A stretch of 64,000 nt of DNA from an uncultured Elusimicrobia bacterium (GCA_963702895.1 OY969767.1:2208001-2272000), one strand, 5' to 3'. Shown: positions 1,135 through 20,449, counted from the stretch's first letter. The notes: generated by a model not told the origin, from the sequence alone. Translations and numbers: made by a program.

Positions 1135-4100
1135 TTAATCACCACCACTTGCCCCGTCTTTTTGGCTCCGCCGTCGGCCTTCAGGACATACACGTAAATC
1201 CCGGAAGCCACCCGGTCGCCGCTCTCATTGGTCAGGTCCCAGGTGATGGAGCTGCTTGAGGTGGGCAGCGTCTTCACGTGATGCCCCGAGACCGTGAAGA
1301 TCTTGATCTCGGTATCGATCGTGAGACTGTCAAAAGTGACGGACCTCGCCGCGTGCCGGTCGCTCCGCCAAGGGTTGGGATAGACCCGGACCTGATCGAG
1401 ATTGGCTGACACCAGCGTTACCTGCGCCGAAGCCGGCGCCGAGGCCGTGCCCGCCGCGTCATAGGCGGTGACCGTCACTACGTAAGGACCAAGGTCCAGT
1501 CCCGCCGTGGCGAGATTCGCCTGCGGGGTCTGGGTGGTGAAGGAAGCGGAGCGGGCTGCGCTCGGTGCATGAACCGGCGAGCCGGCGACAGGGCGAGCCG
1601 GCGTCTGTGATGTTTCGCCGATTCCCCGATTCGCCGGTGCGCCGATTCGGTCAATGGGATTGAACGTCCACCCAAAATACGCCGCCGGTGTCGAACCGGT
1701 GTAGCCAGCCGAGACTTGAGCGTTCACCGGCAGATAAGCAGGCAGATCGAGCGTCGGCGTGGCGAGCCCCCCCGGCGGAGGAGGTGGAGGCGGCGGGGGC
1801 GGCGGCAGGACGGGGCCATAACAGTTGTTGGCATTAAAGTTCAGGACACCATTGGTTCTGGATGTGGTCTCAAAGCACACGCGTGCTGGAATTTTATAGA
1901 CATGACCGCCCACGCCGCTCACATTGCCACCGGTCACGTCTGGCCCAATCGAGGGCCAGGGGATCGCGGTGGGCCACCAGCTCGGCTTGGCCGAAAGATA
2001 AAGCGAGGCCGGTAGATCGTTTGTTGATGGAACAGGGTTGGAGAACTGGCTGAGTCCCGAGGGGACTTCGCTGGCGAGAAAGCGGGAGGTCCCGTTCACA
2101 GTGTCGTAGTTCCCCCAGCGAAGCAGTGTGGATTTGACGAGCGGATCTTCGAAGGAAGCGGGCAAGTTCCCAGAATCCCCCAACCGGAAAATCGACGTCT
2201 CGGGGCTCGTGAAGGAGGGGGTGACCGACTCGTAATTGGTGTGGTAGCCCGATCTTCCCAGCACATTACCGATGATGTTGAAAAAGCGGGTGAAGGAGTA
2301 GAGATTCACCGGCACGGTCTGAGCGGTCTTACCGGTCTCCCAGCCAATGAAATAATTTCGGAAGGCTGTAATGAAATGGTGGGTGCCGTGGATCACGTCC
2401 GCCGTGAAACCGGGCCCTTCATTGCCTTCATGCAGAATATATTCCGTGCCCGCCGCATGGGCGTAATTGCTGCCCTGCATCCAGTTGGCGGAGGCTGCGT
2501 AGTAATCATCGAACGCATAGTTGTAGGCTTCCACCAGGCCCGAGGCGGAGCCGCCCACCATCAAGGGCCCTGCGATATGATGGAAAATGTTGTTCTCCAC
2601 CAAATTGTCGGACCCCATATACGATTCAACCCCATAGCTTTGCGAGGCGGCATGCCGGGTGCCGTAGAAATAGCTATCACGCACCGTACAGTGCGCCGAC
2701 TCGTAGAGCCAGACGTGATTGCGGTCAGAGTTCAAATCTCGGACATTCTTGACCCAGCAGTCGTAGCACCAGATGAGGTAGATGTCTGAGCGGTTCCCGG
2801 ACGTGTTGAAGGTGTTATCCACAGACAGGTCTTCCACGCCGTTGCCGGAGGAGAACCCGCTCGAGTTCCCCCACCAGGCATGCGGGCTCTGTGACGCTCG
2901 CCAGTTCGGCATATAGAGACCCGGCGAGATGGTGACCAAGTTCCCGGCGATCGCGCTGACCTTGGTGAACTGCTGCTGAGCTCGATTGGGTTGGGCCCCG
3001 CCAGCCGGTCCTTGGTCCGCGCAGACACCTCCGGTGTCGCAGGCAAACACAGCTCCGGTATCCGCCGGATCATTGAGCTGGTCCAGAACGATCACCATCC
3101 CCACCGATAAACCGGTCGTATGGCTGAGCGTGATTTGGGTGGTTCCCTTGGCATAACCCGCTGTCCAGTTCGCGGTGTAGCGGGGGCTTTCCACGTAGTA
3201 GCTGTTGTCGGATGCTGCAACGCAGATATTGGCGCCCATCCCGCGGCACCGCGAACCGGACAGGAAGTTCAAGTAGGTTTTATCCGCCCCCGCCCCGCGT
3301 AGGGTCACGTTGTTCTTGCCGTTGAAATCAATGCCTTCCGAAAGGGTATAGGTCCCCGCAGGGATGTAAACGACCTGACCACTGGGGCAGGCTTGGATGG
3401 CGCTGTTGATCTCGGCGGCGCTGGCAAACGGAGGCAGGGTCGCGCAGATCGTGGTGCGGTTGGGAATCCCTCCGACCACGCCCGCCTGGCTCCAGTCGAT
3501 GGCCCGGGCGGGATCGAGGATGCCGGACCAAGGGATACCCGGCGGCGAAGTGGGCGCCTGCGTCGTAGCGCTGGCCGCGGCCGAGAGCGCCGAGACATTG
3601 CCGGCCGCATCATAAGCCGTCACGCGGTAGCTGTAAGACGTCGAAGACACAAGGCCCGTGCTTATATAGGAAGTCCCACTGGTGACGCTCGAGATCCAGA
3701 CCCCATTGCGATAAATCCCGTAGCCTGCCACCCCGACCGCATCGGTCGAGGCGGTCCAGGAAAGATTGATCGCTGTCGAAGAGACAGCCACCGCCGCAAG
3801 GCCCGTCGGCACGGATGGTGGGGTCGTGTCTGGCGGAGGGGGTGCTCCACTTGTTGCGGCGACGTAGAGGGTTTTGCTTGCGTAAAGCGGGTAAACCCTC
3901 ACGTCCAGCGATCCGCCGCCCACAGAGCAAGTGTAAGGACTTGCGTTGTCGACCGTGGTCGGGATGCGGTCTTCATAGCAAACCACGAACCGGACAAGCT
4001 CCGCATCGGAAGGCGTTACGGTCACCACCCCGCCCGACTGAGAATACGTCGCTGAGAGATCGTAGCCGCCAGGCCTATAGGAATACGCTCCGATGTCCGG

Positions 4101-5813
4101 TGCCGCGTTAGAACCATAGTAGACAGGTTCCCCGTTGGCCCAGGTAAACGGCGCCATAACCGTAATGGCATCACCGGAGATGGCAGATATTCTGACGGTG
4201 TCGTCGCCCACCGTGATGACATCGCCCACCACAAGATTGCCGCCATACTGAGTTAAATTAAGGTTATCCGCTCTGAAAAATCCGCCGCCATTGGCAAGCA
4301 CGTTAAAGGTGGTTCCTGTGCCGCCGCCACTGGTCGCGGTGAGCGGCCCCCCTCTCCCTCTGGCGCCGGAATGACTTTGCAGATGAAAGTCATCGTTGGC
4401 GTAATCCACAAACTGGGGGTTGGCGTTCCATTGGCCGTGCAGTTGAGTAGAAAATGGAGGAGCGAAGGTGACCGCTCCCTGCGGATCGTATCCCAAGTTG
4501 TAATCTATTTGATAGGTCATGCCCGCGCGATTACAACTGTTGTCTAAACTTAAACAGTACACCTCAAGATTGGACGCAGCACTATTTCCCCAACTCTCAT
4601 ATTCCAGGTTGTTGAGGATATAGGCATGATTCACCAAGGTGCCATACCAAGCCAGCCCATAGCGAACAGTGGGGTTGTACTCTTGTAAGTCAGCAGCCGT
4701 ATTATTGTAATACCGTATGTGGGTAATCGGCCCGACGGTGACCTGATTGATTCCCACGCCGCCGCTGCTCACATTGTGCCAGACGTTGCGGCGGAAGATA
4801 TTTTCCGTCATGGGGCCGCAGGCACCGGTGCAATTCCCGGGTTGGCCGTGACTGATCTGGGCCGTATGTTCATCCCCGGCGTTGCCGACACCCACTTGGA
4901 AGTGGCTCTCAATCAAACTGTTGCTCCAGCCCCGATTGTTTGAGCCGGTCTGAAAAACATCGGAATGACCACCCGAAGCTTCACTGAAATCGTGCGTGTA
5001 ATTTCCAATCCATCGGTTATGGGAGCCCATGATCAAGAATCCGTCGGGATGGGAATTATAAACTTCGTTATAGGCGATCAAACTATTGTCTCCAACAGTG
5101 CCGACAGCCATGCCGGAACCGTTGCCGATGCCGAAATTCGCTAAGGTGTTGCCGATGATGAGGCTATTATTAATCACTCCGGTGCAGCCGTAGCCGCATC
5201 GGATGCCATTACCTATCCCATTTCGAATGGTGTTGTTCCAAAACTCTAAATAGCTAACGGTACCGCATATCAAAACAACCCCACTTTGCATGTTGCAGGA
5301 TCCTTGATCCGAATCCATGACAAAGCCTATGACACGAATGAAGCTGTTGCCGGTAAAATCAAACCCGCAGACCGTGACGGCTCCGTCAGCCATGAACGTA
5401 ACGGTGTTCGCCACGGATGTGCCATTCACCGCCGGTGTAACGCGCTCTTCATACGTTCCGGGCTGAACGCGGACCACATCGCCCGCGCTGACGTGATCGG
5501 CCGCCCAGTCGATGGTCCGCCACGCCCCGCCCGAGGTGTTCGTCAATCCGGTGTTGGTGTTGTTCCCATCGGTGCGGACATAATAGGTGGCCGCCTGCGC
5601 CGCCGGAGCAGCCAGCAGCAAGAGAAGGCTGTATCGGAGTAACGGGGTAACGGTGTATCGGAGTAACGGAGTAACGGTGTATCGGGGTAACACCTCTAAG
5701 AGCGTAATGTGTTTACGTTGCTGTGACTCCGATACTCCGATACGCCCCGCCATCACATCGTTGGCGGGCCCGCCGTGATGTAGTGGCGGGCGATACGCCG
5801 ATACGAAGTTCAC
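1131..5813 (-). CDS. Secreted protein: beta-helix module, FN3, second pectin-lyase-like beta-helix module, Pro linker, Ig-like domain and FlgD-Ig/T9SS-A-like CTD
   Basis: Signal peptide LLLLLAAPAAQA. Asn-rich beta-helix repeats ending DIGAY. FN3 motif DTTPPSVPTGL...YRVTAYDAAGN. C-terminus VRVYPNPW...WDLTNESGDRVASGIYVY...KKTGQVVVIK. Confidence 0.88.
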   Translation of the reverse strand: MNFVSAYRPPLHHGGPANDVMAGRIGVSESQQRKHITLLEVLPRYTVTPLLRYTVTPLLRYSLLLLLAAPAAQAATYYVRTDGNNTNTGLTNTSGGAWRTIDWAADHVSAGDVVRVQPGTYEERVTPAVNGTSVANTVTFMADGAVTVCGFDFTGNSFIRVIGFVMDSDQGSCNMQSGVVLICGTVSYLEFWNNTIRNGIGNGIRCGYGCTGVINNSLIIGNTLANFGIGNGSGMAVGTVGDNSLIAYNEVYNSHPDGFLIMGSHNRWIGNYTHDFSEASGGHSDVFQTGSNNRGWSNSLIESHFQVGVGNAGDEHTAQISHGQPGNCTGACGPMTENIFRRNVWHNVSSGGVGINQVTVGPITHIRYYNNTAADLQEYNPTVRYGLAWYGTLVNHAYILNNLEYESWGNSAASNLEVYCLSLDNSCNRAGMTYQIDYNLGYDPQGAVTFAPPFSTQLHGQWNANPQFVDYANDDFHLQSHSGARGRGGPLTATSGGGTGTTFNVLANGGGFFRADNLNLTQYGGNLVVGDVITVGDDTVRISAISGDAITVMAPFTWANGEPVYYGSNAAPDIGAYSYRPGGYDLSATYSQSGGVVTVTPSDAELVRFVVCYEDRIPTTVDNASPYTCSVGGGSLDVRVYPLYASKTLYVAATSGAPPPPDTTPPSVPTGLAAVAVSSTAINLSWTASTDAVGVAGYGIYRNGVWISSVTSGTSYISTGLVSSTSYSYRVTAYDAAGNVSALSAAASATTQAPTSPPGIPWSGILDPARAIDWSQAGVVGGIPNRTTICATLPPFASAAEINSAIQACPSGQVVYIPAGTYTLSEGIDFNGKNNVTLRGAGADKTYLNFLSGSRCRGMGANICVAASDNSYYVESPRYTANWTAGYAKGTTQITLSHTTGLSVGMVIVLDQLNDPADTGAVFACDTGGVCADQGPAGGAQPNRAQQQFTKVSAIAGNLVTISPGLYMPNWRASQSPHAWWGNSSGFSSGNGVEDLSVDNTFNTSGNRSDIYLIWCYDCWVKNVRDLNSDRNHVWLYESAHCTVRDSYFYGTRHAASQSYGVESYMGSDNLVENNIFHHIAGPLMVGGSASGLVEAYNYAFDDYYAASANWMQGSNYAHAAGTEYILHEGNEGPGFTADVIHGTHHFITAFRNYFIGWETGKTAQTVPVNLYSFTRFFNIIGNVLGRSGYHTNYESVTPSFTSPETSIFRLGDSGNLPASFEDPLVKSTLLRWGNYDTVNGTSRFLASEVPSGLSQFSNPVPSTNDLPASLYLSAKPSWWPTAIPWPSIGPDVTGGNVSGVGGHVYKIPARVCFETTSRTNGVLNFNANNCYGPVLPPPPPPPPPPPGGLATPTLDLPAYLPVNAQVSAGYTGSTPAAYFGWTFNPIDRIGAPANRGIGETSQTPARPVAGSPVHAPSAARSASFTTQTPQANLATAGLDLGPYVVTVTAYDAAGTASAPASAQVTLVSANLDQVRVYPNPWRSDRHAARSVTFDSLTIDTEIKIFTVSGHHVKTLPTSSSSITWDLTNESGDRVASGIYVYVLKADGGAKKTGQVVVIK
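1571..1648. repeat. Octamer-armed hairpin in frame in the C-terminal Ig-like domain
   Basis: GAACCGGC/GAGCCGGC units facing TCGCCGAT/TCCCCGAT units. Confidence 0.75.
5631..5804. repeat. Octamer-armed palindrome (CGGnGTAW; 24-bp higher-order unit) with nested CCCGCC..GGCGGG hairpins, encoding the protein leader
   Basis: gtatcggagtaacggggtaacggt-type unit x2 plus a partial unit; opposite arm actccgatactccgatac; encodes RYTVTPLL repeats. Confidence 0.85.
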
Positions 5814-8800
5814 TTAATCACCACCACCTTCCCTGTCTTTTTGGCTCCGCCTTCCGCCTTCAGGTGATAGACATAGATCCCCGAGGCCACCCGGTCGCCG
5901 CTTTCATTGGTCAGGTCCCAGGTGACGGAGCTGCTTGAGCTCGGCAGCGTCTTCACATGGTGCCCCGAAACCGTGAAGATCTTGATCTCGGTATCGATCG
6001 TGAGACTGTCAAAAGTGACGGATCTCGCCGCGTGGCGGTCGCTCCGCCAAGGGTTGGGATAGACCCGCACCTGATCGAGATTGGCTGACACCAGCGTCAC
6101 CTGCGCCGATGCCGGTGAAGAGGCGCTGCCGGAGGCGTCATGGGCGGTGACGGTCACGAGGTATGTTCCCAGGTCAAGGTTCTGCGCGGCGAGGCTTGCG
6201 ACCGTTGAAGCGGTGGTGAAAGAGGCGCTGGGAGCATGTCCTGCGCCCAGCGTCCCGCGTCCCGCGTCTGGCGTCTCGCGTCCGACGTCAACCGCTGTCG
6301 GTGCTGGACTCGGGACCCGGGACTCGGGACTCGAGACTTGCGACGCGGGACTCGAGACTCGGGACTCGGGACTCGAGACTTGCGACGCGGGACTCGAGAC
6401 TCGGGACGCGGGACCCACCATCGACGTGAACGTCCAACTGAAATACGCCGGCGCCACAGACCCGCCGTAGCCGGCGCGCACTTCGGCGTTCACCGGCAAA
6501 TACGCGGGCAAATTCAGTGTCGGTGTAGCCAGGCTGCCGCCGGGCGGAGGCGGCGGAGGCGGCGGCGGTGGAGCGACTGTTGGGCAGTTACCGGAAGGGC
6601 AATACTCATAGGCTCCGATGTCCCAGGCACTCCCTTGTGGGCGGACGATGTTATCCTTGTCGTAGTTAAAACCAGCCTGAGGAACACCCACATTGATCGC
6701 AGGACTCACGGACTGAAGATGAAAATCGAAACGCGCAGGATCAACGAAGGCTGGGTCCTGATTGATGAGATCGGTAGGAGCGTAACGATTGGGGTAACCA
6801 AGCCGGTTTAAGAGGTTATGGCCGGACGAAATAATGACACCACCCGTCGCGCCGTCAGCCCAGTAGTTGGATCCAGCGTTGTAAAAGATATTGTTCTCAA
6901 CGATGCCGCTCGCGCCATCACTATAACCTATGCCGTGATACATGAGTTCAGCAAAGACATTGTTGTAGGCGTCGACATGGGTCACTTGCTCGACGCAGAG
7001 TCCCCACGCTCCTCCGGGCTGGCCGTCGGCAAAGGTTCCATGGAAGATGTTGTTGCGGAAGGTGAGGTGGGAGGAGTTGTGGTGGAAGGACGCTTCTGCC
7101 ATGAGTCCCTGATGGAAACTGGAACAGAAGTTCCCCTCAAAAATGATATTTCTGGCGTATTCCCCGTTGTTGTCGTACGTCTGGAAACAATCCACATGCG
7201 CCGCGGCGATCTCGGTTTGCAGGGTTCCGTGGAAATAGTTGTTTCGAAAGAGGATGTTTTCGCCAAAAAACCGCGAATAGTCCGAGTCCCCACTGCCCGG
7301 ATTAATTAAACGCTCGACTTCATTGTTTTCGATCACCCAATCCACCCCGCTGGCGACAATGCCCATCCCCGGTCGATAAATGCGGTTGTTGGCGATTTTG
7401 ACTCCTCTTTTGTAAGGCGGACTCCAAGCCCCCACAATCCCAGAACCGCTGTCATAAATGTAATTGTCCATCACTTCGACATAATCGCTGCCAACATAGA
7501 CGCCTTGCGTCTCATCCCAACCGGTGAGACCAAGAGTCGAAATGTTGAAGCCCTCAAGGCGCAGATAATTCGCGTTACGCGTGTTGAAGCCCTTCAGAGT
7601 GACCGATCGCCTCGGCTCGGCCCGGAAGGAAATACGAGCCCCTTCCTGCCCCGAGGCGCCGGACGGGAACCGAATTCGCTCCGGATAATTCCCCGCTTTG
7701 ACCACGACTGTTTCACCCGCCTTGACGGTATTGGCGGCCTTTTGAATGGTTTTCCAGGGCAAGACATCGGTCCCAGGATTGCTGTCGCTGGCGGAAGCAT
7801 GGTTCTGGTCGACATAGTAGGTGTTGGCAACGAGGGGGTGGGGGTAGGTGTAGGGGGTGTAGTAAGCAATCCAGGTGTTCGGCGCGGTGCATTGGTAGAG
7901 TGTGCCGGAAATCAGACTTGCCGGATTGGCACCGACCCTGCCGGTGAGATCCGTGCAGGATTGGTCCGTGGCCCAATAGCCGACACCGGGAGCGCAGGTT
8001 GCGGGGCGAGAGGCCAGCGTGCCGCACCCGACACCGGTGGCTCCATCGAATCCCGATTCCACGAACTTAAACCAATGGACATTTTCTGTTACTGTATAAC
8101 CGCAAGATGAATTGCAGTCTTTCATCCCCCTGCTATAGAGATTCGTTACTGCGCCTGTCATGCTGCCTTTTCGATTATTCCACGCATAGGTATCACTGAT
8201 GTGTTGCGGCTGGGTGTTCGTTGAAGGGCAATAAACACATTCACAGGATTCAATGGGATTTGTCGATGATCCCTCGGAATCCCTGATCCCCCAGCCGCTA
8301 AAACCGCTGGAGGTATAATTATTGAAAATAAGATGTTTGCCGCCTCTGAAATCGGTGTAACCATCAACTAAGGTAATATGATTGCCGTACATCTCTGACC
8401 CAAAACAAGACCGATAAGAACAAATACCGCTGCTCCCTGCGGCATCCCCATGCTGGTCAAACAACGGGTAACTTCCAGGGGAAGTGGCAACGATGGTGTT
8501 GTAGCGAAAAGCGTACCGATTCCCATATTGGCAATCGGCAACAACTTGACTGGCCTGAATATTGTTATCTTCCAGATAGAAATTGTCTGCTGTGCCGAAC
8601 GTCAAACCTGGCCAATTATCCCACCAATCCTGATCATCACCGCTGGAGAATCGGATGGGATAGCTGGTCCCGCTAAAGGTGTTGTGATCGGCGACGCCCC
8701 GATAACCGTTGATCGTGAGGGCCTGATCATGGGAATTGAGAAAAACATTATGATCGATTCGGATCTTGTTCTGAATGGTGAGACCAGAGCTTGAATAAGC

Positions 8801-9346
8801 CAGGACGATTCCACCGGTCTTATAATTAAAGTTAAAGGTAAAACTGGATAGCCTGAAGGCCCAATTTTGTGAAAAATCCGATGGCCGATAAAAAATTAAT
8901 ATAGGGCCTGTCCAGTCATAAATACCCGTGTAATCAGCAGTGATTGTAATATTGCCCGCCCCCGGCCCTACGATGTTCAGTCCTTTACTTATACACAGAG
9001 CAGCCCTTGTATTAGAGCCTGCGCAAGTACGGTAGGTGCTCCAGGTGGCACTGCCTGCCGGGATGATGACGGTATCTTCCGGCGCCGCCGCGTCAACGGC
9101 CGCCTGCACGTCCGCCTGACTGCAGCTGGCGGCATTGATCGTGGCCGCCTGCGCCGCCGGAGCAGCCAGCAGCAAGAGAAGGCTGTATCGGAGTAACGGG
9201 GTAACGGTGTATCGGAGTAACGTAGTAACGGTGTATCGGAGTAACGGAGTAACGGTGTATCGGGGTAACACCTCTAACAGCGTACTGTGTTCACGTTGCC
9301 GTGACTCCGGTACCCCGATACTCCGATACCCCGTTACGGAAATCAT
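5810..9346 (-). CDS. Secreted protein with two beta-helix modules (second DUF1565-like) and FlgD-Ig/T9SS-A-like CTD
   Basis: Signal peptide, AASCSQADVQAA module, YYVD..SDSNPGT..PWKTIQKAA module, DIGAYE, poly-Pro linker, shared C-terminal domain. Confidence 0.88.
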   Translation of the reverse strand: MISVTGYRSIGVPESRQREHSTLLEVLPRYTVTPLLRYTVTTLLRYTVTPLLRYSLLLLLAAPAAQAATINAASCSQADVQAAVDAAAPEDTVIIPAGSATWSTYRTCAGSNTRAALCISKGLNIVGPGAGNITITADYTGIYDWTGPILIFYRPSDFSQNWAFRLSSFTFNFNYKTGGIVLAYSSSGLTIQNKIRIDHNVFLNSHDQALTINGYRGVADHNTFSGTSYPIRFSSGDDQDWWDNWPGLTFGTADNFYLEDNNIQASQVVADCQYGNRYAFRYNTIVATSPGSYPLFDQHGDAAGSSGICSYRSCFGSEMYGNHITLVDGYTDFRGGKHLIFNNYTSSGFSGWGIRDSEGSSTNPIESCECVYCPSTNTQPQHISDTYAWNNRKGSMTGAVTNLYSRGMKDCNSSCGYTVTENVHWFKFVESGFDGATGVGCGTLASRPATCAPGVGYWATDQSCTDLTGRVGANPASLISGTLYQCTAPNTWIAYYTPYTYPHPLVANTYYVDQNHASASDSNPGTDVLPWKTIQKAANTVKAGETVVVKAGNYPERIRFPSGASGQEGARISFRAEPRRSVTLKGFNTRNANYLRLEGFNISTLGLTGWDETQGVYVGSDYVEVMDNYIYDSGSGIVGAWSPPYKRGVKIANNRIYRPGMGIVASGVDWVIENNEVERLINPGSGDSDYSRFFGENILFRNNYFHGTLQTEIAAAHVDCFQTYDNNGEYARNIIFEGNFCSSFHQGLMAEASFHHNSSHLTFRNNIFHGTFADGQPGGAWGLCVEQVTHVDAYNNVFAELMYHGIGYSDGASGIVENNIFYNAGSNYWADGATGGVIISSGHNLLNRLGYPNRYAPTDLINQDPAFVDPARFDFHLQSVSPAINVGVPQAGFNYDKDNIVRPQGSAWDIGAYEYCPSGNCPTVAPPPPPPPPPPGGSLATPTLNLPAYLPVNAEVRAGYGGSVAPAYFSWTFTSMVGPASRVSSPASQVSSPESRVSSPASQVSSPESRVPSPAPTAVDVGRETPDAGRGTLGAGHAPSASFTTASTVASLAAQNLDLGTYLVTVTAHDASGSASSPASAQVTLVSANLDQVRVYPNPWRSDRHAARSVTFDSLTIDTEIKIFTVSGHHVKTLPSSSSSVTWDLTNESGDRVASGIYVYHLKAEGGAKKTGKVVVIK
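6250..6416. repeat. Heptamer-armed hairpin (GCGTCCC / GGACTCG) in frame in the C-terminal Ig-like domain
   Basis: About 5 GCGTCnn units facing about 16 nGACnCG units; encodes SRVSSPASQVSSPE. Confidence 0.85.
9185..9337. repeat. Octamer-armed palindrome encoding the protein leader
   Basis: Three 24-bp units; opposite arm actccggtaccccgatactccgataccccgttac. Confidence 0.85.
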
Positions 9347-12300
9347 TTTATCACCACTACTTTTCCAGTCTTCTTGGCTCCGCCTTCCGCCTTCAGGTGA
9401 TAGACATAGATCCCCGAGGCCACCCGGTCGCCGCTTTCATTCGTCAGGTCCCAGGTGATGGAGCTGCTTGAGGTGGGCAGCGTCTTCACGTGATGCCCCG
9501 AGACCGTGAAGATCTTGATCTCGGTATCGATCGTGAGACTGTCAAAAGTGACGGACCTCGCCGCGTGCCGGTCGCTCCGCCAAGGGTTGGGATAGACCCG
9601 GACCTGATCGAGATTGGCTGACACCAGCGTTACCTGCGCCGATGCCGGTGAAGAGGCGCTGCCGGAGGCGTCATGGGCCGTGACGGTCACGAGGTATGTT
9701 CCCAGGTCAAGGTTCTGCGCGGCGAGGCTTGCGACCGTAGAAGCCGTGGTGAAAGAGGCGCTTGGAGCATGTCCCGCACTTAGCGTCCCGTGTCTCGCGT
9801 CTGGCGTCTCGCGTCCGACGTCAACCGCTGTCGGTGCTGGACTCGGGACCCGGGACCCGGGACTCGAGACTTGTGACGCGGGACTCGAGACTCGGGACGC
9901 GGGACTCGAGACTTGCGACGCGGGACTCGAGACTCGGGACGCGGGACCCACCATCGACGTAAACGTCCAACTGAAATACGCCGGCGCGACGGTGCCGCTG
10001 TAGCCGGCGCGCACTTCGGCGTTCACCGGCAAATACGCGGGCAAATTTAGTGTCGGCGTGGAGAGGCTCCCGGGCGGGGGAGGTGACGGCGGAGGGGGTG
10101 GCGGCAGCACGATCGGACAGCTGCCGGAGGGGCAATATTCATGCGCCCCTATGTCTGGAGCGGCCCCCCAAAGCACAAGGCGACCGCTAGAATCTCTAGA
10201 AAGATGAACCGGATCGCCACGACGGCGGGAGAGCGGAGATGAGAGCGTGATCAGGTTGGAGGCATAGTCGATGGAAGCGATTTGGGCCGCATTGCCCACC
10301 GAGCCCACAGCAATCCAATCCGGGTTCACAAGGCCGCCTTGACCATCCTGAAACATTCCAGCGTCATCCACCCGCAGGGAAACGCCGCTCTCAGGATCGT
10401 CGGCCGCCACATGGGTCAGGGGCCCACCTCGGTCCTTCGCGGGAGATTCCTCTTGAAGATTGAAATCGCCGCTCCCCGAATTCACAAACAAAGGATTTTG
10501 ATTCAGGACCACATTGGGTTCGCTCCGAATGGGATTTTGCCAGCCACACCCCGCACCACAGGAGGAGTTAAAGGCTAAATTGTTGGAGGCATAGAAACCT
10601 GGCTGTGAAGTCGTATCAAAGTTATAAACCTGGGCGTAATCACGGATGGTATCGGCATAAAGGTTGTTGATGATCTTGCCACCGGTCGAGCTATTCCAGC
10701 GGCCGGTCACGACCCATTCGGACGTCGCCGTATGCAAGGCCTGAAAGACCGTGTTGTTGTATTCCTTGATATTGTCGAATCCCGAATTCGCCACCATAAA
10801 ATAGCTTCCGATGGTGTCAACCGTATTGTGTCGAACGATCACGTTCTTGGCACCACAGGCCTGGCTATCCTGAAGCAGCAAAAAGTGGGCGTGACCGACC
10901 GGGGAGTTCCTCAAGATGTTGTTTTCATACAGGGCGTATTGCAGCGGGTTGGGGTAATAGGACGCGGCACAGGAGCTTTCGATCCCGTCAATGTGCAGGT
11001 GGTTGGAGGTTCCAGGGAAATCCGTCTCATAGGCGTCGTGGAGGACATTTTGGCGGACGACGTTAAACCGTCCCTCGAGCGCGATAAAATCGGTCACATG
11101 CGAAATGTCGTTGCCATCGATCAAGGTATGGTCACTAAAGGCGCCGATTCCGCGTGCTCCGTTGTTGGGAGCGGGCGTTTCGGAGCCACAATAGGAAATC
11201 GTATTGCTTTGGATCGTGATGTAGGAAGGCGGAGCGCTCTCATGCAAGCGGACGCAATTGCCCTGCGTGTGGTGGATCAAGTTGCGGAGGATCCGGGAAC
11301 CGGTCGAACTCTTGAAGTAGACAGCACCCCACGAATAGGAAGCACCGGCATGCTGCGTAAAACCCTGATCCGTAATTTCAAACCCCTGGATCACGATGTA
11401 ATTCTTTCCAATCACCCCAAATCCCGGCATTTTCACGCTGCCTTCCGCGAGAAAGGTGATCAGCTGCCCGGCTGAGCCGGAATGGGCAGGCCGAACATAT
11501 TCATCGTAAGACCCCGCGGCCACCCAGCAGGTGTCCCCCGCCACGGCGGCATTCGCACAGGCCTGGATCGTGGTGAAGTCTCCTGTTCCGTCGGGATGAA
11601 CTCGGTAGGCATGCCCACCCAGCGTCACGCTCTGCAGCGGATGCGGATAGGGGTAGGGGGTGTAGCCGGAATAGGCATTGGGACCCGAAGCGGTGAAGAC
11701 CATGGTGCCAACGCTTGGATAGGTCGTTCCGTCCGTCGGATAACTGCCGGAAGCTCCGTTGCATTGCGTGATTCCCGCCTGGCAGACAAAGGTCTCTCTG
11801 CCCCCCGTTGCCTGCGGGGCATGCAAGAAATAGTCCCTGTCTTTACGGATAAACGGATTAGAGACAGGATTTGCATTATCACCACAGGTTCCTGTTCCAG
11901 GCCCCGTGCAACAGAACATCGGAGTTCTACTCGCGATGCAATCGTAATTGGTAGGAGAGGTCTCTACAGAACCATAAGTCCCATCATTAAAGTCGTGCCC
12001 ACGGTACGTATTATTCCAGACAAACGTATTGTGAATCTGATCTTCAGCCGGCCACGCAACCCTGTGAACCGACCAATTATCGCTCGTATATTCTTCCTCG
12101 ACCAACATGATTCTGGGATTGTTGCTCACCGTGCCGGTGATGACATTGTTGTAAATAAGGTTTGCAGATCCGCGAGAGATGTACATAAAGTCGATTCGCT
12201 TTCCGGATTCTGTATTGTTGTAAAACTCGATGACCGACTGCCCTCTCCGTTGACATGAAGATGCTTGCCAGTAGCCGGCTCCCCCGCATCCGCCATCGGC

Positions 12301-13185
12301 GCTGCCGTGAGCCATGAAAGGAGTATAGGTACCCAGTGTATCGGGCACATCAGTGGCAGTAAAATCATTAAACCGAACCACCAGTTTCCCGCCGTTATGA
12401 GTCCCTATCTGTTCCTGGGTATAAGGCAATGTGTAACTTGCATTTGTAATGAAATGATTATCTTCAATGAAGAGAGCCTCGACCGTTCCGGCATCAAGGG
12501 ATGCCCATGAGGCGTCGGCGTTAGCCCGGCTTCCGGCACTAAAACCTATACTTTGTATCCCGTTGTAAAAATAATTATGGTCGATCAATCCTTTCATATG
12601 GTCAAAGGTGATAGGCACGTTTCCAAAATGAAACGTGTTGTGATCAATTCTGATTTGCCCGCCGTGAACGCCTCCCGCCATATCATGAACGCGGATGGCC
12701 GCCGCGGGAGTCCAGTTTGTCATCTGGAAAGTGAATCCGCTGACCCTGACAAGGCTGCTTGCGGTGAATCCCGTAATATTGAAGAACCCATCGGGCATAC
12801 CACCGCTTGCCGTTAATATCGTGTTGCCAGAACCTGCGCCCATGATGCTGAGCGGCTTGCTTACGTTCACCGCCGAAGTCCAAGTGCAGTTCCGTGAGGG
12901 GATCATCAGCACATCTCCAGCAGAGGCGCTGTTGATTGCCGCCTGCACGTCCGCCTGCGAACAGCTGGCGGCATTGATCGTGGCCGCCTGCGCCGGCGGA
13001 GCAGCCAGCAGCAAGAGAAGGCTGTATCGGAGTAACGGGGTAACGGGGTGTCGGAGTAACGGAGTAACGGTGTATCGGAGTAACGGAGTAACGGTGTATC
13101 GGGGTAACACCTCTAACAGCGTACTGTGTTCACGTTGCCGTGACTCCGGTACCCCGATACTCCGATACCCCGTTACGGAAATCAT
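9343..13185 (-). CDS. Secreted protein with two beta-helix modules and FlgD-Ig/T9SS-A-like CTD
   Basis: Same leader as 5810..9346, AASCSQADVQAA module, GDFTTIQAC module, DIGAHE, shared C-terminal domain. Confidence 0.88.
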   Translation of the reverse strand: MISVTGYRSIGVPESRQREHSTLLEVLPRYTVTPLLRYTVTPLLRHPVTPLLRYSLLLLLAAPPAQAATINAASCSQADVQAAINSASAGDVLMIPSRNCTWTSAVNVSKPLSIMGAGSGNTILTASGGMPDGFFNITGFTASSLVRVSGFTFQMTNWTPAAAIRVHDMAGGVHGGQIRIDHNTFHFGNVPITFDHMKGLIDHNYFYNGIQSIGFSAGSRANADASWASLDAGTVEALFIEDNHFITNASYTLPYTQEQIGTHNGGKLVVRFNDFTATDVPDTLGTYTPFMAHGSADGGCGGAGYWQASSCQRRGQSVIEFYNNTESGKRIDFMYISRGSANLIYNNVITGTVSNNPRIMLVEEEYTSDNWSVHRVAWPAEDQIHNTFVWNNTYRGHDFNDGTYGSVETSPTNYDCIASRTPMFCCTGPGTGTCGDNANPVSNPFIRKDRDYFLHAPQATGGRETFVCQAGITQCNGASGSYPTDGTTYPSVGTMVFTASGPNAYSGYTPYPYPHPLQSVTLGGHAYRVHPDGTGDFTTIQACANAAVAGDTCWVAAGSYDEYVRPAHSGSAGQLITFLAEGSVKMPGFGVIGKNYIVIQGFEITDQGFTQHAGASYSWGAVYFKSSTGSRILRNLIHHTQGNCVRLHESAPPSYITIQSNTISYCGSETPAPNNGARGIGAFSDHTLIDGNDISHVTDFIALEGRFNVVRQNVLHDAYETDFPGTSNHLHIDGIESSCAASYYPNPLQYALYENNILRNSPVGHAHFLLLQDSQACGAKNVIVRHNTVDTIGSYFMVANSGFDNIKEYNNTVFQALHTATSEWVVTGRWNSSTGGKIINNLYADTIRDYAQVYNFDTTSQPGFYASNNLAFNSSCGAGCGWQNPIRSEPNVVLNQNPLFVNSGSGDFNLQEESPAKDRGGPLTHVAADDPESGVSLRVDDAGMFQDGQGGLVNPDWIAVGSVGNAAQIASIDYASNLITLSSPLSRRRGDPVHLSRDSSGRLVLWGAAPDIGAHEYCPSGSCPIVLPPPPPPSPPPPGSLSTPTLNLPAYLPVNAEVRAGYSGTVAPAYFSWTFTSMVGPASRVSSPASQVSSPASRVSSPASQVSSPGSRVPSPAPTAVDVGRETPDARHGTLSAGHAPSASFTTASTVASLAAQNLDLGTYLVTVTAHDASGSASSPASAQVTLVSANLDQVRVYPNPWRSDRHAARSVTFDSLTIDTEIKIFTVSGHHVKTLPTSSSSITWDLTNESGDRVASGIYVYHLKAEGGAKKTGKVVVIK
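9783..9949. repeat. Heptamer-armed hairpin, same family as 6250-6416
   Basis: GCGTCnn / nGACnCG units with a few substitutions relative to the other copy. Confidence 0.85.
13024..13176. repeat. Octamer-armed palindrome encoding the protein leader
   Basis: Near-identical to 9185-9337. Confidence 0.85.
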
Positions 13186-16043
13186 TTTATCACCACCACT
13201 TTCCCCGTCTTTTTGGCTCCGCCTTCGGCCTTCAGGTGATACACGTAGATCCCCGAGGCCACACGGTCGCCGCTTTCGTTCGTCAGGTCCCAGGTGACCG
13301 AGCTGCTTGAGGTGGGCAGCGTCTTCACGTGGTGCCCCGAGACTGTAAAGATCTTGATCTCGGTATCGATCGTGAGACTGTCAAAAGTGATGGATCTCGC
13401 CGCATGCCGGTCACTCCGCCAGGGGTTGGGATAGACCCGCACCTGATCGAGATTCGCCGAGACGAGCGTCACTTGGGCTGAAGCAGGCGAGGAAGCATTG
13501 CCCGCCGCGTCAAAGGCTGTGACCGTCACCACGTAAGGCCCGAGGTCCAGTCCCGCCGTGGCGAGATTGGCCTGGGGGGTGCGGGTGGTGAAGGAAGCCG
13601 AAGGTGCCGGCTGCGCTCTAGGCTCTAGGCTCGAGGCTCCAGGGGAAGAAGAAGTGCTGTTGCCTAGAGCTTGGAGCCTGGAGCCTGGAGCGACACTTAC
13701 AGGGGTGAAGGTCCAACTGAAATAGGCCGCGGGCGTCGCGCCGGTGTAACCTGCCGTGATCTGGGCGTTGACCGGCAGATACTCCGGCAGATTGAGCGTC
13801 GGCGTGGAGAGGCTCCCAGGCGGTGGAGGCGGTGGAGGGGGTGGAGGAGGTGGAGGAGGCGGCGAAGTCGCCGCCTGGGTCGTCGCGCTGGCCGCGGCCG
13901 AGAGCGCCGAGATATTCCCGGCCGCATCATAAGCGGTCACGCGGTAGCTGTAGGTGGTCGAAGCCGAAAGGCCCGTGCTCGCATAGGACGTGCCCGAGCT
14001 GACGCTCGAGATCCAGACCCCATTGCGATAAATGCCGTAGCCTGCCACCCCGACCGCATCGGTCGAGGCGGCCCAGCTAAGATTGATCGTAGTGGAAGAA
14101 ACGGCCACCGCCACCAGGCCCGTCGGCACCGAAGGGGGGGTCGTGTCCGGCGGAGGGGGTGCTCCACTTGTTGCGGCGACGTAGAGGGTTTTGCTCGCGT
14201 AAAGCGGGTAAACCCTCACGCCGAGCGCTCCGCCGCCCACAGAGCAAGTGTAAGGACTTGCGTTGTCGACCGTGGTCGGGATGCGGTCTTCATAGCAAAC
14301 CACGAACCGGACAAGCTCCGCATCGGAAGGCGTTACGGTCACCACCCCGCCCGACTGAGAATAGGTCGCGCTCAAGGTGTAGCCGCCCGCCTTGTAGGGA
14401 TACGCCCCGATGTCGGGTGTGGCATCGTGACCGAAGTACACCGCCTCCCCGTTGGCCCATGTGAAGGACGGCGTAACGGTGATGGCGTTTCCTGAGATAC
14501 TCACCACGGTCACGACGTCGGTGCCGACCGTGATCGTATCGCCCACCACCACATTGCCGCCATATTGCGTGATGGTCGTATCATCATCAGAAAAGTAGCT
14601 GGCGTCACCCACCATGAACGTCGTGCCCGTATTGTTGGCGGACGTGACCGTCGTGAGCGGACCACCTGCATTTCGTGCGGGTGAGCCAGACTGAAGCGTA
14701 AAATCTCGAGTTGCCGCATTGGTCACTAATGGATTCGTATTCCGGAGAGAATGCGCTTCGGCGTTGATTGTACTCGCGTAATTGATCGATCCGCCTATAT
14801 CGTAAAAAATATTGTAGTCATGCACGGCGGGAGTATCATCATAGACACCGACTGGATTCGTCCCTGGCCACCACGCTTGGTGCCAGATATTGTTCAAGAC
14901 CCCTCGGCCAGCCGCGACGTTACTACCACGGTCATAAGTGACATAATGCGAGGCATATGCGATGGTTTCGTGATAAATTTTGAGGAAAGCCTGTCCGTCC
15001 GCAAGCCCAAAACACTGCCCGCCTGCGTTGCCATTACTGGACCAGACGTTTCGCCGGAATATCGTATAGGCGTCCAAGCTGGCTGAATTGGTTTCGATAT
15101 TGGTACAGTGATGTTCACTTCCGGACTCATCGGCGTAGAAATTCCCCTCATACAGTGAGTGGCCCAAGCCAATAGAATCCTGACCGGATTGAATGAAATC
15201 GGTATGAGATGAAGGAGCCGCATTCACATTATGGCTATAGTTGTTCAGTAGCCTATTTCTTTGCCCAAAGAGATAGATGAAGTCAACCTCGGGGGTGTCG
15301 GATTCGTTATAGGCAATGACGTTGCTGTTGCCACGAACCTGAAAATCTTTGAATGCGGAATGCTTAATCACATTGCCGATAAAGAGACAGTTGTTGGATT
15401 GGTATAGCCTAGCTCCGTTGTCCGTTCTTATGGAATCTCCTTCAAAGTTCTGTATGGTGTTATTCCATATCTCAACATAATCAGCATTTTGCAGGTAGAT
15501 CCCATCGTTTCTGGTATTTCCGCCTTCGACGATAAAACCTATCACTCGAATCCAATCGCCAGTAATGACCCATCCGAAATTCGTCACAGACCCATCAGCC
15601 ACGAAGGTGATGTAGTTTCCGGCAGACCCCGAGCTACTGGCCGTGACTACCTCTGCGTAAGTGCCCGCCTGCACCCGGATCACATCTCCCGCCGCGACGT
15701 GATCGGCCGCCCAGTCGATGGTCCGCCACGCCCCGCCCGAGGTGTTCGTCAATCCGGTGTTGGTGTTGTTCCCATCGGTGCGGACATAATAGGTCGCCGC
15801 CTGCGCCGCCGGAGCAGCCAGCAGCAAGAGAAGGCTGTATCGGAGTAACGGGGTAACGGTGTATCGGAGTAACGTAGTAACGGTGTATCGGAGTAACGGA
15901 GTAACGGTGTATCGGGGTAACACCTCTAAGAGCGTAATGTGTTTACGTTGCTGTGACTCCGATACTCCGATACGCCCCGCCATCACATCGTTGGCGGGCC
16001 CGCCGTGATGTAGTGGCGGGCGATACGCCGATACGAAGTTCAC
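13182..16043 (-). CDS. Secreted beta-helix plus FN3 protein with FlgD-Ig/T9SS-A-like CTD
   Basis: Leader and FN3 block nearly identical to those of 1131..5813; long poly-Pro linker; shared C-terminal domain. Confidence 0.88.
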   Translation of the reverse strand: MNFVSAYRPPLHHGGPANDVMAGRIGVSESQQRKHITLLEVLPRYTVTPLLRYTVTTLLRYTVTPLLRYSLLLLLAAPAAQAATYYVRTDGNNTNTGLTNTSGGAWRTIDWAADHVAAGDVIRVQAGTYAEVVTASSSGSAGNYITFVADGSVTNFGWVITGDWIRVIGFIVEGGNTRNDGIYLQNADYVEIWNNTIQNFEGDSIRTDNGARLYQSNNCLFIGNVIKHSAFKDFQVRGNSNVIAYNESDTPEVDFIYLFGQRNRLLNNYSHNVNAAPSSHTDFIQSGQDSIGLGHSLYEGNFYADESGSEHHCTNIETNSASLDAYTIFRRNVWSSNGNAGGQCFGLADGQAFLKIYHETIAYASHYVTYDRGSNVAAGRGVLNNIWHQAWWPGTNPVGVYDDTPAVHDYNIFYDIGGSINYASTINAEAHSLRNTNPLVTNAATRDFTLQSGSPARNAGGPLTTVTSANNTGTTFMVGDASYFSDDDTTITQYGGNVVVGDTITVGTDVVTVVSISGNAITVTPSFTWANGEAVYFGHDATPDIGAYPYKAGGYTLSATYSQSGGVVTVTPSDAELVRFVVCYEDRIPTTVDNASPYTCSVGGGALGVRVYPLYASKTLYVAATSGAPPPPDTTPPSVPTGLVAVAVSSTTINLSWAASTDAVGVAGYGIYRNGVWISSVSSGTSYASTGLSASTTYSYRVTAYDAAGNISALSAAASATTQAATSPPPPPPPPPPPPPPPGSLSTPTLNLPEYLPVNAQITAGYTGATPAAYFSWTFTPVSVAPGSRLQALGNSTSSSPGASSLEPRAQPAPSASFTTRTPQANLATAGLDLGPYVVTVTAFDAAGNASSPASAQVTLVSANLDQVRVYPNPWRSDRHAARSITFDSLTIDTEIKIFTVSGHHVKTLPTSSSSVTWDLTNESGDRVASGIYVYHLKAEGGAKKTGKVVVIK
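13614..13692. repeat. Heptamer-armed hairpin (GCTCTAG / CTGGAGC) in frame in the C-terminal Ig-like domain
   Basis: gctctag gctctag gctcgag gctccag ... ctagagc ttggagc ctggagc ctggagc. Confidence 0.85.
15837..16034. repeat. Octamer-armed palindrome encoding the protein leader
   Basis: Same as 5631-5804 with one extra 24-bp unit. Confidence 0.85.
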
Positions 16044-19000
16044 TTAATCACCACCACTTTCCCCGTCTTCTTGGCTCCGCCTTCCGCCTTCAGGTGATAG
16101 ACATAGATCCCCGAAGCCACCCGGTCGCCGCTTTCGTTCGTCAGGTCCCAGGTCACTGAGCTGCTTGAGCTCGGTAGCGTCTTCACGTGGTGTCCCGAGA
16201 CCGTGAAGATCTTAATCTCGGTATCGATCGTGAGACTGTCAAAAGTGACGGACCTCGCCGCGTGCCGGTCGCTCCGCCAGGGATTGGGATAGACCCGGAC
16301 CTGATCGAGATTGGCTGACACCAGCGTCACCTGCGCCGATGCCGGTGAAGAGGCGCTGCCGGAGGCGTCATGGGCCGTGACGGTCACGAGGTATGTTCCC
16401 AGGTCAAGATTCTGCGCGGCAAGGCTTGCGACCGTTGAAGCGGTGGTGAAAGAGGCGGAGGGAGCTCCGAAAGCGCGTCCGACGTCCGACGTGCGACGTC
16501 CAACGTCAACTCCAGACGTTTCATATGAGCCGCTTAGACGTCGGACCCGCCACACATCGGGCGGGCGCCTGTCGTGTGGAGCCTCGGACGTCGGACGGCT
16601 CACCGGTTCGCCGGTTCGGCCCACCTGAGTGAACGTCCAACTGAAATACGCCGGCGCCACAGACCCGCCGTAGCCGGCGCGGATCTCGGCGTTCACCGGC
16701 AGATAAGCCGGCAAGTTCAAGGTCGGGGTGGCCAGGCCGCCTGGTGGCGGAGGGGGCGGCGGAGGCGGAGGGGGTGGCAGGCCCGTTCTGAGCGGGTGGG
16801 GATAAGGATAAGGCGTATAGGAGGTTGACCAGGTGTTGGGCGCGGTGCATTGGTAGAGCGTGCCGGAAATCGGACTTGCCGGATTGGTACCGACCCGACC
16901 GGTGAGATCCGTGCAGGCTTGATCCGTGGCCCAATAGGCAACACCGGGCGTGCAGGTCGCCGGACGCGCGGCCAGCGTGCCGCACCCCATCCCCACAGTC
17001 CCATTGAAACCCGCCTGATGATTCCAATAATCAACATTTTCCGTAATGGTGTAAGGCGATCCGACCGCGGCATCGGCGCAGAAGTCCAAGCCTTTGGTCA
17101 TGGGGCGGAGAATTCCCCCACCGTAGTTCGCCCATACATACGAATTTTGAACATGCTGGGAGTACGCCGGGGAAGCGGGGCTTTGACAAGAATCACATGA
17201 ATACTGTGCATAGTACGGCTTGGCATAAGAAGAATCACTGGAGTTGTAAAACATTAACTGCCAACTACCCCTATGCGCCATCCAGGTGGAAAAATCCGGG
17301 CTATTGACGATCTTATTCCCGTAGTACTCGGATTTGATCGTGGACCATTGCTCACAAGAATCCTGATTAGGGTTGCAAGAACCGGCCACCGAGGGGCTGC
17401 AATTGGAATACCCGCAACAGCTATAACCCGGGCTCACTGACATGCTTTGCAATCCGTGATTGACCCACAGGCCCGAAAGGCCGGTGGCATTGGCCAGATC
17501 CGTGGTGTTGTACCGATAGACATAACCCGGCGCGCCCTGCCCGTGGTCGGTCAGTCCGCCCTCTATGGCCTGGGTAAAACGGATGGTGTTGTCCTCGATG
17601 AAGAAATTCGTCCCGGTCCCATACTCCCTCGGAACTAGCGCCCAGGAGACCGCGTCTCTCCCAAACGTTCTGATCACGTAGCCGACATTGATGAAATGAT
17701 TCAAATAGGCCACGCCATAAACCGGCCCGCTCACAACCACACCCGTATGTAAGGAATTCTGAAACGTGTTGTGGTGGATTTTGATATTGGACATGACTTT
17801 GGAGGTGCTTCCATTCCCTACGTAGAGAAGGCCTTGGTGCTTCGAAAGTGACTGGCCGTCCAAGGTAAATCCCGTGATTTCAAACGCCTCATTATGGGTC
17901 TGTGCCGTTGCATCCGGAATATAAGCGATCTGACCATGGTCGGAGGGTCCGTTCAGGGTAATCGTGGTGGGCCCCCCGATGCCACCCTGCAATTTGATGC
18001 CTTGGGTGAGGGAAAGCAATCGATTATACCCGCCGTAAGAAGTCTCGTTTGACCAGGTGCATGAACCGGCCGGAACGATGATCGTGTCCCCTCGTTCCGC
18101 AAGGTTCACAGCGGCCTGGACATCCGCCTGCGAACAGCTGGCAGCGCTGATCGGAGGCCGAACAAATTCATGGGCTCCCATATCCGGCGCCGTACCATTA
18201 AGCACCTCCCGGCCGCTCGAATCCTTATACAACCACACCGGCGCGTTGGCCGCCCAGCTGAGCGGGGATTTCAGCGTGATCGTGTTGGCCGCATAGTTGA
18301 TCGAGGCGATTGGCGCGCGATTGCCCGCACTCCCCACGGCAATCCAGTCCGCGAAGAAATTCACGTTCCGCGCCAGGTCGGACCCCCACGACCCATCCTG
18401 AAAATATAACGCATCGTTCACTTTCACGGTGATCGAGTTGCTTCCGGAGCCTACGGTGGTCGTTAAAGGGGCGCCCTGATCGATCGCAGGCGAATCCGAT
18501 TGAAGGCGTAAATCGGGCAGGGTCTTGCTGGTGGGATCGTCGAGAGAAGGATTGAGGAATTTAGGGTTGCCTTTGACGGTTGTCCAGTTATTTTCGATGG
18601 TCGCGATCCCCGGATAATCGGCTGGATTCAGTCCCGTGTCGACCGTGATATCAAGGCCCGTGTAGAGAGTCCCGGGATAGAGGTCCGGCAAACTCAGGTA
18701 GTACGAAAAATTATCGTAGACCAGATTGTTTTTGAGGACATTTTCGAGGGTCGCCGAATAAAGGGTGATCCCGGCGAGCTTCCCGGGGCATGTCGAGCAT
18801 CCCGGCTGCGTCTTCTGCATGTAAGGGTAGGTCCACCCGTTGTGGAAAAAGGTGTTGTTGTAGACCCGGTTGTTGGTCGAGCCGGTCCCGCCCGCGCCAA
18901 TCTTGCCGTAGGAGGCGTACTTAAAATAGAGTCCCGCCTGCTGGCCATTGTAAATGGAGTTGAACCGGACGATGTTTTTCGGCGCCGCCAGAGACAACAC

Positions 19001-20385: not shown

Positions 20386-20449
20386 AGTTCAAATGAATTT
20401 TGCATGGCTGACTTCAGACTGTAACTTTCGCTCGTTACCCTCAAGTAGC

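Follow-up and report, generated by a model that had tools for sequence, protein, structure and literature searches.

The DNA examined here is a 64,000-nt stretch (the window) of the 2.72-Mb, single-contig genome of an uncultured Elusimicrobia bacterium (G000). Its first 20 kb contain five head-to-tail minus-strand genes, g1 to g5, which open frames and Pfam matches identify as encoding beta-helix/fibronectin type III (FN3) proteins, and the final 220-255 residues of these proteins are common to all five. At one codon-level site within this shared part, between the motifs F(S/G)WTF and SASFTT, every gene carries an in-frame, stop-free foldback whose arms are built from tandem 7- or 8-nt units. 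A first-pass annotation of the window, made from its sequence alone, had noticed this in five paralogs; that count is right for the window, and a whole-genome tblastn search with the flanks of the site added three paralogs directly upstream of it, giving a family of eight genes, all with a foldback at the site, and four insert types. The insert was GCGTCCC-type in all three upstream genes.

Gene g1 (1131-5813, minus strand) is an open frame of 1560 amino acids (aa) for a predicted secreted beta-helix/FN3 protein ending in an immunoglobulin (Ig)-like domain and a C-terminal domain (CTD) like those of the type IX secretion system (T9SS); its Pfam matches were fn3, Pect-lyase_RHGA_epim and Beta_helix, with FlgD_ig under its cut-off. 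It is followed on the same strand by g2 (5810-9346; 1178 aa), g3 (9343-13185; 1280 aa), g4 (13182-16043; 953 aa) and g5 (16040-20014; 1324 aa), the last with an ordinary N-terminal signal peptide. PF18962 (Por_Secre_tail) matched four of the five genes (not g1) at 19.9-22 bits, below its cut-off of 27. The shared module of g5 (16043-16780, minus strand), its last 246 residues, was modelled with AlphaFold2 from an input alignment of 20 rows, and the model has an Ig-like beta-sandwich at residues ~19-154, with the insert (53-107) inside it, followed by a T9SS-type CTD-like sandwich at ~162-244. Insert residues 53-107 lacked secondary structure in the model (predicted local distance difference test (pLDDT) score of 42-65), and the strands that border it (45-52 and 108-113) scored above 90. 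A Foldseek search with this module ranked PorZ (E 8.7e-7) and PorU at the top and FN3 tandems next, with the RgpB CTD at rank 40. The insert site is thus predicted to be a disordered surface loop between two strands of the Ig-like domain, ahead of a T9SS-like CTD.

The five window inserts measured 111, 198, 198, 105 and 171 nt, each a multiple of 3 and open in the minus-strand frame. That of g1 (1551-1661; 37 aa) is a foldback of 8-nt units, with plus-strand arms of GAGCCGGC type at 1574-1603 and TCGCCGAT type at 1614-1649 (period 8 in Tandem Repeats Finder, TRF). The g2 insert (6230-6427; 66 aa) is a GCGTCCC/GGGACTC 7-mer foldback with unequal arms (6238-6289 and 6306-6414), the longer of which has a 21/42-nt super-period in TRF, and g3 has the same GCGTCCC-type element (9763-9960), with arrays at 9783-9822 and 9839-9947. 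In g4 (13602-13706; 35 aa) the foldback is made of GCTCTAG/CTGGAGC 7-mers, with arms at 13615-13643 and 13662-13691. The g5 insert (16460-16630; 57 aa) had been described as a 7-mer hairpin over 16475-16620; its ACGTCCG-family arms are present (16476-16507, TRF period 7, and ~16530-16600) but the element is a composite, the right arm being interrupted by a nested small palindrome (~16537-16600) and followed at 16603-16618 (TRF period 8) by what is left of an 8-mer arm, present on a single side.

Both features that define these elements were found in all five inserts, where the first-pass annotation had placed them. TRF reported arrays of period 7 or 8 with 2.0-15.6 copies, 72-90% matched, and the unit of one arm differed at 0-1 positions from the reverse complement of the other arm's unit, the arms being 72-89% complementary; the inverted-repeat search returned, for example, arms of 46 nt at 72-76% complementarity (6238-6414) and of 33 nt at 79% (9783-9900). 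TRF and the inverted-repeat search detected no tandem-unit foldback elsewhere in the five gene bodies, beyond the CTD loop and the 5' junctions. The minimum free energies (MFE) of the g1 to g5 inserts were -48.2, -103.8, -93.8, -46.8 and -85.6 kcal/mol, and among the folding controls (codon shuffles and synonymous-codon resampling, 60 shuffles each) the codon shuffles gave z values of -2.7, -4.3, -3.0, -5.1 and -3.7. An independent public contig was identical to the window over 16492-16661 (one run, low-depth contigs). The same run contained one joint skipping 16457-16632, on a contig that differs at 7 places in 141 nt and is most likely a paralog.

All eight paralogs were in frame, and the single length variant, an upstream GCGTCCC copy (pC) 42 nt shorter than the others of its type, differed by 6 units or 14 codons. 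The earlier expectation that slippage by a single unit would frameshift away the downstream sorting domain holds in principle, and no out-of-frame copy was present among the eight.

The corresponding loop of relatives' homologs was 16-27 aa long. Of 15 such loops, 14 had a folding z between -0.7 and +2.2 and one stood at -2.3. In G000 itself, three distant paralogs gave +0.5, -0.6 and +1.2, the middle value belonging to the S8 protease gene of the window (20393-24109), whose loop (23621-23692, plus strand; 24 aa) has no tandem units and no excess pairing, in agreement with its earlier description as short and non-repetitive. Since the loop is plain in relatives and in distant paralogs, the native state is a hairpin-free loop, and the foldbacks were acquired within the eight-gene subfamily.

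Insert type was set against the relationships of the genes. Flank DNA identity among the six closer paralogs was 79-94% upstream and 91-97% downstream of the insert, with g1 and g4 standing apart (82-97% downstream across all eight). In maximum-likelihood trees of the flanks, g1 and g4 were sisters with support of 98/97 downstream and 95/95 upstream, and g5 grouped as sister to the upstream paralog pA in the upstream block (97/98); otherwise, the downstream block was unresolved. Insert types differed within both well-supported pairs, so that the type changes between sister paralogs. In the site alignment, all four types began 10-15 nt past the TF codon. That four unit types occupy one site was borne out; their description as unrelated was slightly too strong, as the 8-mer remnant in g5 resembles the g1 family and the GCGTCCC and ACGTCCG inserts have a 15-nt stretch of the inner right arm, in the same unit phase, in common. 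Because g5 and pC retain, on the 5' coding side alone, parts of an 8-mer arm similar to the g1 arm, we infer that an early 8-mer element may have been overwritten later. Overall, the comparison supports a CTD-loop site that was filled or refilled several times by different imported elements.

Small hairpin repeats with 7- or 8-base units are found in many bacterial phyla; we know of no account of how they spread. In this genome, TRF listed 283 period-7 and 253 period-8 arrays, compared to 58 of period 6. Defining a foldback as an array with a reverse-complement partner within 130 nt gave 73 merged foldbacks, in which the order was always a unit array followed by its reverse complement. Open frames of at least 150 aa enclosed 49 of the 73, cf. 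88% of 3000 random segments; foldbacks are depleted from coding DNA yet far from excluded. Nineteen lay deep inside long frames, including those of seryl- and valyl-tRNA synthetase (SerRS, ValRS), MnmA, PurL and addA, as recognised by sequence motifs and not by family search.

The inserts at the CTD loop belong to these dispersed repeat families. The ACGTCCG family comprised 49 loci; its 23-nt arm is conserved, the loops (0-100 nt) are unrelated from one copy to the next, and the arm pattern (allowing up to 2 mismatches) occurred 79 times in the genome and never in the reversed control, 11 times in one same-genus relative and not at all in 29 other relatives, two of them same-genus genomes that are just 73% complete. 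BLAST and alignment matched the g5 insert to eight dispersed loci with unrelated flanks at 84-95% identity over 51-64 nt, in alignments that took in the left arm and both parts of the right arm, with the nested palindrome between them. A wider TRF list has GCGTCCC-type units at 22 loci, among them the foldbacks at 750810, 1679247, 1730647, 2173464 and 2576227, and the best match of the long g2 arm outside the paralogs was the right arm of a gene-carrying cassette at genome 497509-497642 (84-88% over 68-95 nt; described below). Relatives of the g1 8-mers occurred elsewhere, for example at 1889674-1889868 and 2272809-2273022. The case for dispersed copies is weakest for the GCTCTAG type of g4, with one other TRF locus (1132851-1132920, in addA) and inserts of the same unit type in the ValRS genes of two relatives (G005 and G006). 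These matches support the import of the g5 and GCGTCCC inserts, which would not have evolved in place. Three outcomes had been named in advance as able to overturn the hotspot idea, namely alignment of the inserts to one ancestral sequence, pairing no stronger than in codon shuffles and a lack of relatives elsewhere in the genome; none of them occurred. No target-site duplication was visible at nine aligned compound ACGTCCG copies or in filled-versus-empty comparisons at four ortholog sites. We rejected an identity as miniature inverted-repeat transposable elements on the lack of such duplications; for a parent insertion sequence, PF01797 alone was looked for.

Some of the larger arrays accompany a small gene of the family PF05635 (23S-rRNA intervening-sequence type, a four-helix bundle), a large family for which, to our knowledge, no function has been assigned. 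The genome had ten PF05635 matches, and arrays with a period of 7, 8, 16 or 21 nt lay 27-117 nt from all ten, whereas only 9.1% of 20000 random segments had such a neighbour. The proteins were 12-48% identical and the units varied from gene to gene. Clean inverted arms enclose the gene at 497134 and that at 2082751, whose units are TTTTGGA. For the gene at 1698211, the distance is 66 nt to one ACGTCCG arm and 874 nt to the opposite one, and the remaining genes have more complex arrangements. Upstream of seven of the ten there is a conserved promoter-like motif (TGAATAA, ~17 nt, CATCTAAGG(G/T)AT), also seen in a same-genus relative (L025, ~10975-11010), and on this sequence pattern the cassettes may carry their own promoter. 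Cassettes with matching units were found for ACGTCCG (gene 1698211), GCGTCCC (497134), the 8-mers at the gene junctions of the cluster (730125) and a GAAAATA foldback. Every one of ten searched genomes of the same family had 1-11 PF05635 matches, and in two of them an insert inside an open reading frame (ORF) matched the arms of a PF05635 cassette in the same genome (G004 MnmA/L096 and G008 SerRS/L107). PF05635 genes are thus tightly linked to unit arrays, and by association their proteins would be the best candidates for a part in the spread of the elements. The CTD inserts (105-198 nt) have no PF05635 gene between their arms and can at most be gene-less relatives of the cassettes.

Two cassettes showed further features. 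The PF05635 frame at 497134-497676 runs into its own right arm, so that its C-terminal tail is translated repeat (DAGLETR/DAGLKTQ), a peptide that resembles that of the CTD inserts. Beside the gene at 1170686, about five copies of a CTCAGAG/CTCTGAG foldback follow one another head to tail at a 120-nt period (1171028-1171686).

Other possible enzymes fared less well than this four-helix-bundle family, which the first-pass annotation had listed among several candidates. A genome search for a REP-associated tyrosine transposase (RAYT; PF01797) gave one 23.3-bit match (E 1.1e-4) in an 89-aa frame, which is not a credible RAYT gene, and three 507-aa RVT_1 frames at 230, 464 and 1963 kb did not adjoin any examined element.

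The junctions between the clustered genes also carry foldbacks. Between the g2 stop and the g1 signal peptide lies one of 8-nt units of GTAACGGA/ACTCCGAT type (5631-5746), which encodes RYTVTPLL repeats in open frame upstream of the signal peptide, and TRF and the inverted-repeat search placed sister elements at 9185-9337, 13024-13176 and 15837-15976; the 5' junction hairpin is absent from g5. Units of this family also flank the PF05635 gene at genome 730125-730439. A GAAAATA-type foldback (1042-1126; arms 36 nt, 81% complementary) separates g1 from the next downstream gene, and its arm and lead-in resemble an arm of the PF05635 cassette at genome 811560-812076. The junctions are in this way a second fixed site, with 8-mer foldbacks at four and a GAAAATA-type element at the equivalent position of the fifth. 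In the same-genus relative L025, equivalent junctions after CTD-gene stops (10799-11536 and 1141-1537) have arms of 21-nt units, one pair accompanied by a PF05635 gene and the other gene-less.

We compared five in-ORF element sites of G000 with their orthologs in genomes of the same taxonomic family (10 others searched, 9-10 genomes per site, several contigs being fragmentary). At the SerRS loop, three of ten genomes were filled, by three different hairpins (GCGTCCC-type in G000, an 8-mer type in G008 and another in G007), six had a native loop of 4-12 aa and one had 16 aa. The MnmA turn was filled in four of ten genomes by four different strong hairpins (-36 to -68 kcal/mol), with two intermediate and four native states. 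ValRS was filled in four of nine genomes by two families, namely ACGTCCG in G000 and a GCTCNAG/CTGGAGC type in G005 and G006, the fourth insert (G010) being decayed; the other five were empty, with 2-7 aa. A PolX-like gene was filled in two of nine genomes, by different elements within one genus, and empty in seven, one of them with a poorly aligned flank. For PurL, an 18-29 aa linker was present in all nine genomes and family arms in G000 alone. The same site was therefore occupied by different elements at four of the five tested sites (SerRS, MnmA, ValRS and PolX-like). With ~19 deep in-ORF elements per genome, coincidence through random insertion and selection alone looks unlikely; there would be either a preference for these sites or a preferential refilling of sites already occupied. 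A census of the five protein alignments counted nine insertion runs, of which four held unrelated inserts in 2-4 genomes. Further occupied positions in these proteins were a second MnmA site (G000 aa ~383), where four genomes have inserts unrelated to one another, a ValRS position (~210) with a short ACGTCCG-like insert that lacks a loop, and a 39-aa insert in the PolX-like gene (~343) of G000 alone.

Two ideas about what marks such sites were set aside. The motif RACGGY, which encodes an Asn/Asp-Gly turn and is like the outer end of ACGTCCG, was present at three of the four empty ortholog sites (not ValRS), too few cases and confounded with turn codons. As the empty sites fold weakly (-2.8 to -10.6 kcal/mol), a first insertion does not require a DNA hairpin to be in place already.

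Taken together, elements are copied between loci and the sites turn over. The case for a hotspot with repeated replacement, as the first-pass annotation proposed, is supported by the dispersed families, the differing sister pairs and the ortholog sites; the dedicated targeting mechanism that it called for stays a hypothesis. We consider it on balance probable that the inserts are gene-less copies of dispersed foldbacks, each of two convergent arrays of 7- or 8-nt units, that colonised the loop early and were then joined or overwritten by other families. The full-size versions in the same genome would be those enclosing a small PF05635 gene, often behind the promoter-like motif, much like ORF-bearing 23S rRNA intervening sequences. 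A process acting on DNA would copy the elements to new places with no evident target-site duplication, and inside genes the survivors would be in-frame, stop-free copies in loops tolerant of added disordered peptide. The F(S/G)WTF-SASFTT loop was probably colonised early in the eight-gene family, most likely by an 8-mer element, with compound ACGTCCG, GCGTCCC-type and GCTCTAG-type elements as presumed later arrivals in different paralogs; after arrival, arm length may change in steps that keep the frame, such as the 42-nt step. An existing foldback, or the sequence encoding a turn, might attract the next element. When we tried to test attraction between hairpins through adjacency, 21 pairs of different families lay within 100 nt, compared to ~13 at random, an excess that is unconvincing within permissive DNA.

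Several observations count against this account of gene-less dispersed copies. No PF05635 cassette was found in the genome for the g1 8-mer or the g4 7-mer, two of the four CTD types, and the g4 type had no BLAST relative elsewhere in the genome. Against synonymous-codon resampling, the folding z values of g1 to g5 were only -1.1, -2.4, -1.4, -1.3 and -1.6, since this control retains the peptide that the hairpin itself dictates. The division of foldbacks into coding and intergenic was judged by open frames and not by a gene caller. The ortholog sites were chosen because G000 is filled there and the relatives are non-independent, which means that their recurrence is not a clean statistic. The sole public run covering the region (part of 12000-20500; share of words 0.17) gave thin contigs, no RNA data set containing it was listed, and insertion events, enzyme activity and population variants all went unobserved. 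In addition, the ACGTCCG arms of PurL (L034) enclose residues KDLGL that align with the native linker, total length being unchanged, and the residues between the ACGTCCG arms of the PolX-like gene (L037) align with the native turn (AKGE, cf. AKNGE). Host residues between the arms at these two sites are not explained by a single preformed drop-in element, and they hint that the arms might be laid down on either side of a spot and not arrive as one block. This bears on a transposase-free form of DNA writing, in which each PF05635 protein would recognise its own unit and direct the copying of convergent arrays beside a chosen spot, possibly by extension from two nicks on opposite strands. Such writing would account for conserved arms around unrelated or host loops, for the absence of target duplication and for the overwriting of marked sites, and we regard it as a quite unlikely but instructive possibility; if it were true, the intervening sequences of 23S rRNA would be a special case of the same system.

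Three further explanations do without targeting or without import. Near-random insertion filtered by selection alone, with hits piling up in the rare loops that tolerate 25-65 aa of disordered peptide, fits a predicted disordered surface loop whose length varies (16-27 aa in relatives), other recurrent sites that are beta-turns or short linkers of compact enzymes, and the depletion of elements from open frames (49/73 vs 88%), which shows that selection acts. We nevertheless hold it to be unlikely as the whole explanation, because all four types start within the same few nucleotides, no foldback occurs in the poly-proline linker 40 aa upstream or in the rest of the 3-4.6 kb bodies of the five window genes, and, at four of the five sites tested, 1 to 5 other genomes have different elements despite the small number of deep elements in each. 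Concerted evolution in situ, in which one ancestral hairpin diverged in each paralog through mutation, slippage and arm-to-arm correction, would agree with the super-unit difference of pC, with the 15-nt stretch and unit phase common to GCGTCCC and ACGTCCG inserts, and with the loop cores of g1 and g2, which are alike at 8 of 10 bases (a by-eye comparison that could be chance). We hold it to be very improbable, as independent drift would not converge on the 21-nt super-period of the 497-kb cassette arm, which is repeated in the g2 arm, or on the family-specific 23-nt arm, variant middle unit and nested palindrome that g5 has in common with eight dispersed copies.

A role for the host is harder still to credit. 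Slippage might toggle the sorting domain (phase variation) or vary an exposed loop, given that units of 7 or 8 nt are not multiples of 3, that a one-unit change would remove the downstream CTD, and that the genes form a multi-copy family of predicted secreted or surface proteins. The arrays are short and imperfect, the frame is intact in every one of the eight paralogs, the length variant included (on thin read data), and the same families occur in SerRS, ValRS, MnmA and PurL and between genes, where switching makes no sense; we give a switch or diversifier hardly any weight. Breakage at fragile hairpins followed by repair templated from other copies could provide an enzyme-free route to replacement, but it does not account for first insertions into native sites, which fold weakly.

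The elements can be set beside four known systems. In Xanthomonas, heptamer arrays form convergent inverted pairs, 70-75 per genome, and G-rich heptamers are reported from Nostoc (Rehm et al. 2015, PMC4692102). The likeness lies in dispersed tandem 7-nt units in convergent opposite-strand pairs, which in Xanthomonas are mostly near gene ends and in some cases intragenic. Unlike the present elements, the Xanthomonas and Nostoc heptamers are treated as G-quadruplex formers, and the unit families of this genome are many, with 8-mers and ones that are not G-rich among them; the portion of PMC4692102 available to us describes no in-frame translated copies, multiple families per genome, PF05635 link or site recurrence. 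A parallel to the cassettes is Coxiella burnetii's helix 45 intervening sequence (IVS), in which an S23p gene occupies the loop of a stem that terminal inverted repeats form and the number of adjoining heptamers varies among strains (PMC4990558). Both combine a PF05635/S23p gene within an inverted-repeat stem, tandem heptamers and a fixed host site that receives the element. IVSs lie in rRNA helices and are cut from the RNA by RNase III (PMC4990558), whereas the cassettes here stand between ordinary genes, and the CTD inserts differ from IVSs in being gene-less and in coding sequence, where translation is needed to make the downstream domain.

Rickettsia palindromic elements (RPEs) are small palindromes inserted in frame in unrelated protein genes, translated and reportedly compatible with folding (PMC10969869). 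They are likened to the CTD inserts by description only and no relation in sequence is expected, as RPEs are ~150 bp with sequence unique to each family and the arms here are tandem 7/8-mers, and different families at one site are not a feature described for RPEs in the part of that source we could draw on. Repetitive extragenic palindromic doublets (REPINs) are short hairpin inverted-repeat pairs in many copies, and a single-copy RAYT acting in trans is the proposed means of their movement (Bertels and Rainey 2011, PMC3116915). By comparison with that account, the present elements have no credible RAYT, tandem-unit arms, loops unrelated between copies and PF05635 as the associated family, and we rejected a REPIN/RAYT system on the lack of a credible RAYT gene. 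Within the library searched, we found no paper tying PF05635 genes outside rRNA to heptamer arrays and no description of different families at one codon-level site; the papers that were found barely cover this element class.

The locus amounts to a compact natural experiment, with eight paralogs, one codon-level site, four element families and donor families in the same 2.7-Mb genome, where matching PF05635 cassettes exist for two of the four CTD insert types. Comparison among paralogs and orthologs speaks for the refilling of sites over random hits, narrows the possible mechanisms and supplies sets of proteins, units and target loops for assays. For annotation, the elements place 25-65 residues of repeat-encoded, probably disordered peptide in conserved proteins, and these can be mistaken for linkers, domains or frameshifts.

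Two sets of long tandem repeats in the window are unrelated to the 7/8-mer foldbacks. Those at 32095-32533 (periods of 84-99 nt) and 39125-39993 (periods of 93/177 nt) lie in the minus-strand genes at 31222-33114 and 38236-40299, respectively. Further along, a 4695-aa open frame on the minus strand (43949-58036) has repeats of 393 nt and of 411 nt inside it (49020-49796 and 56364-57196).

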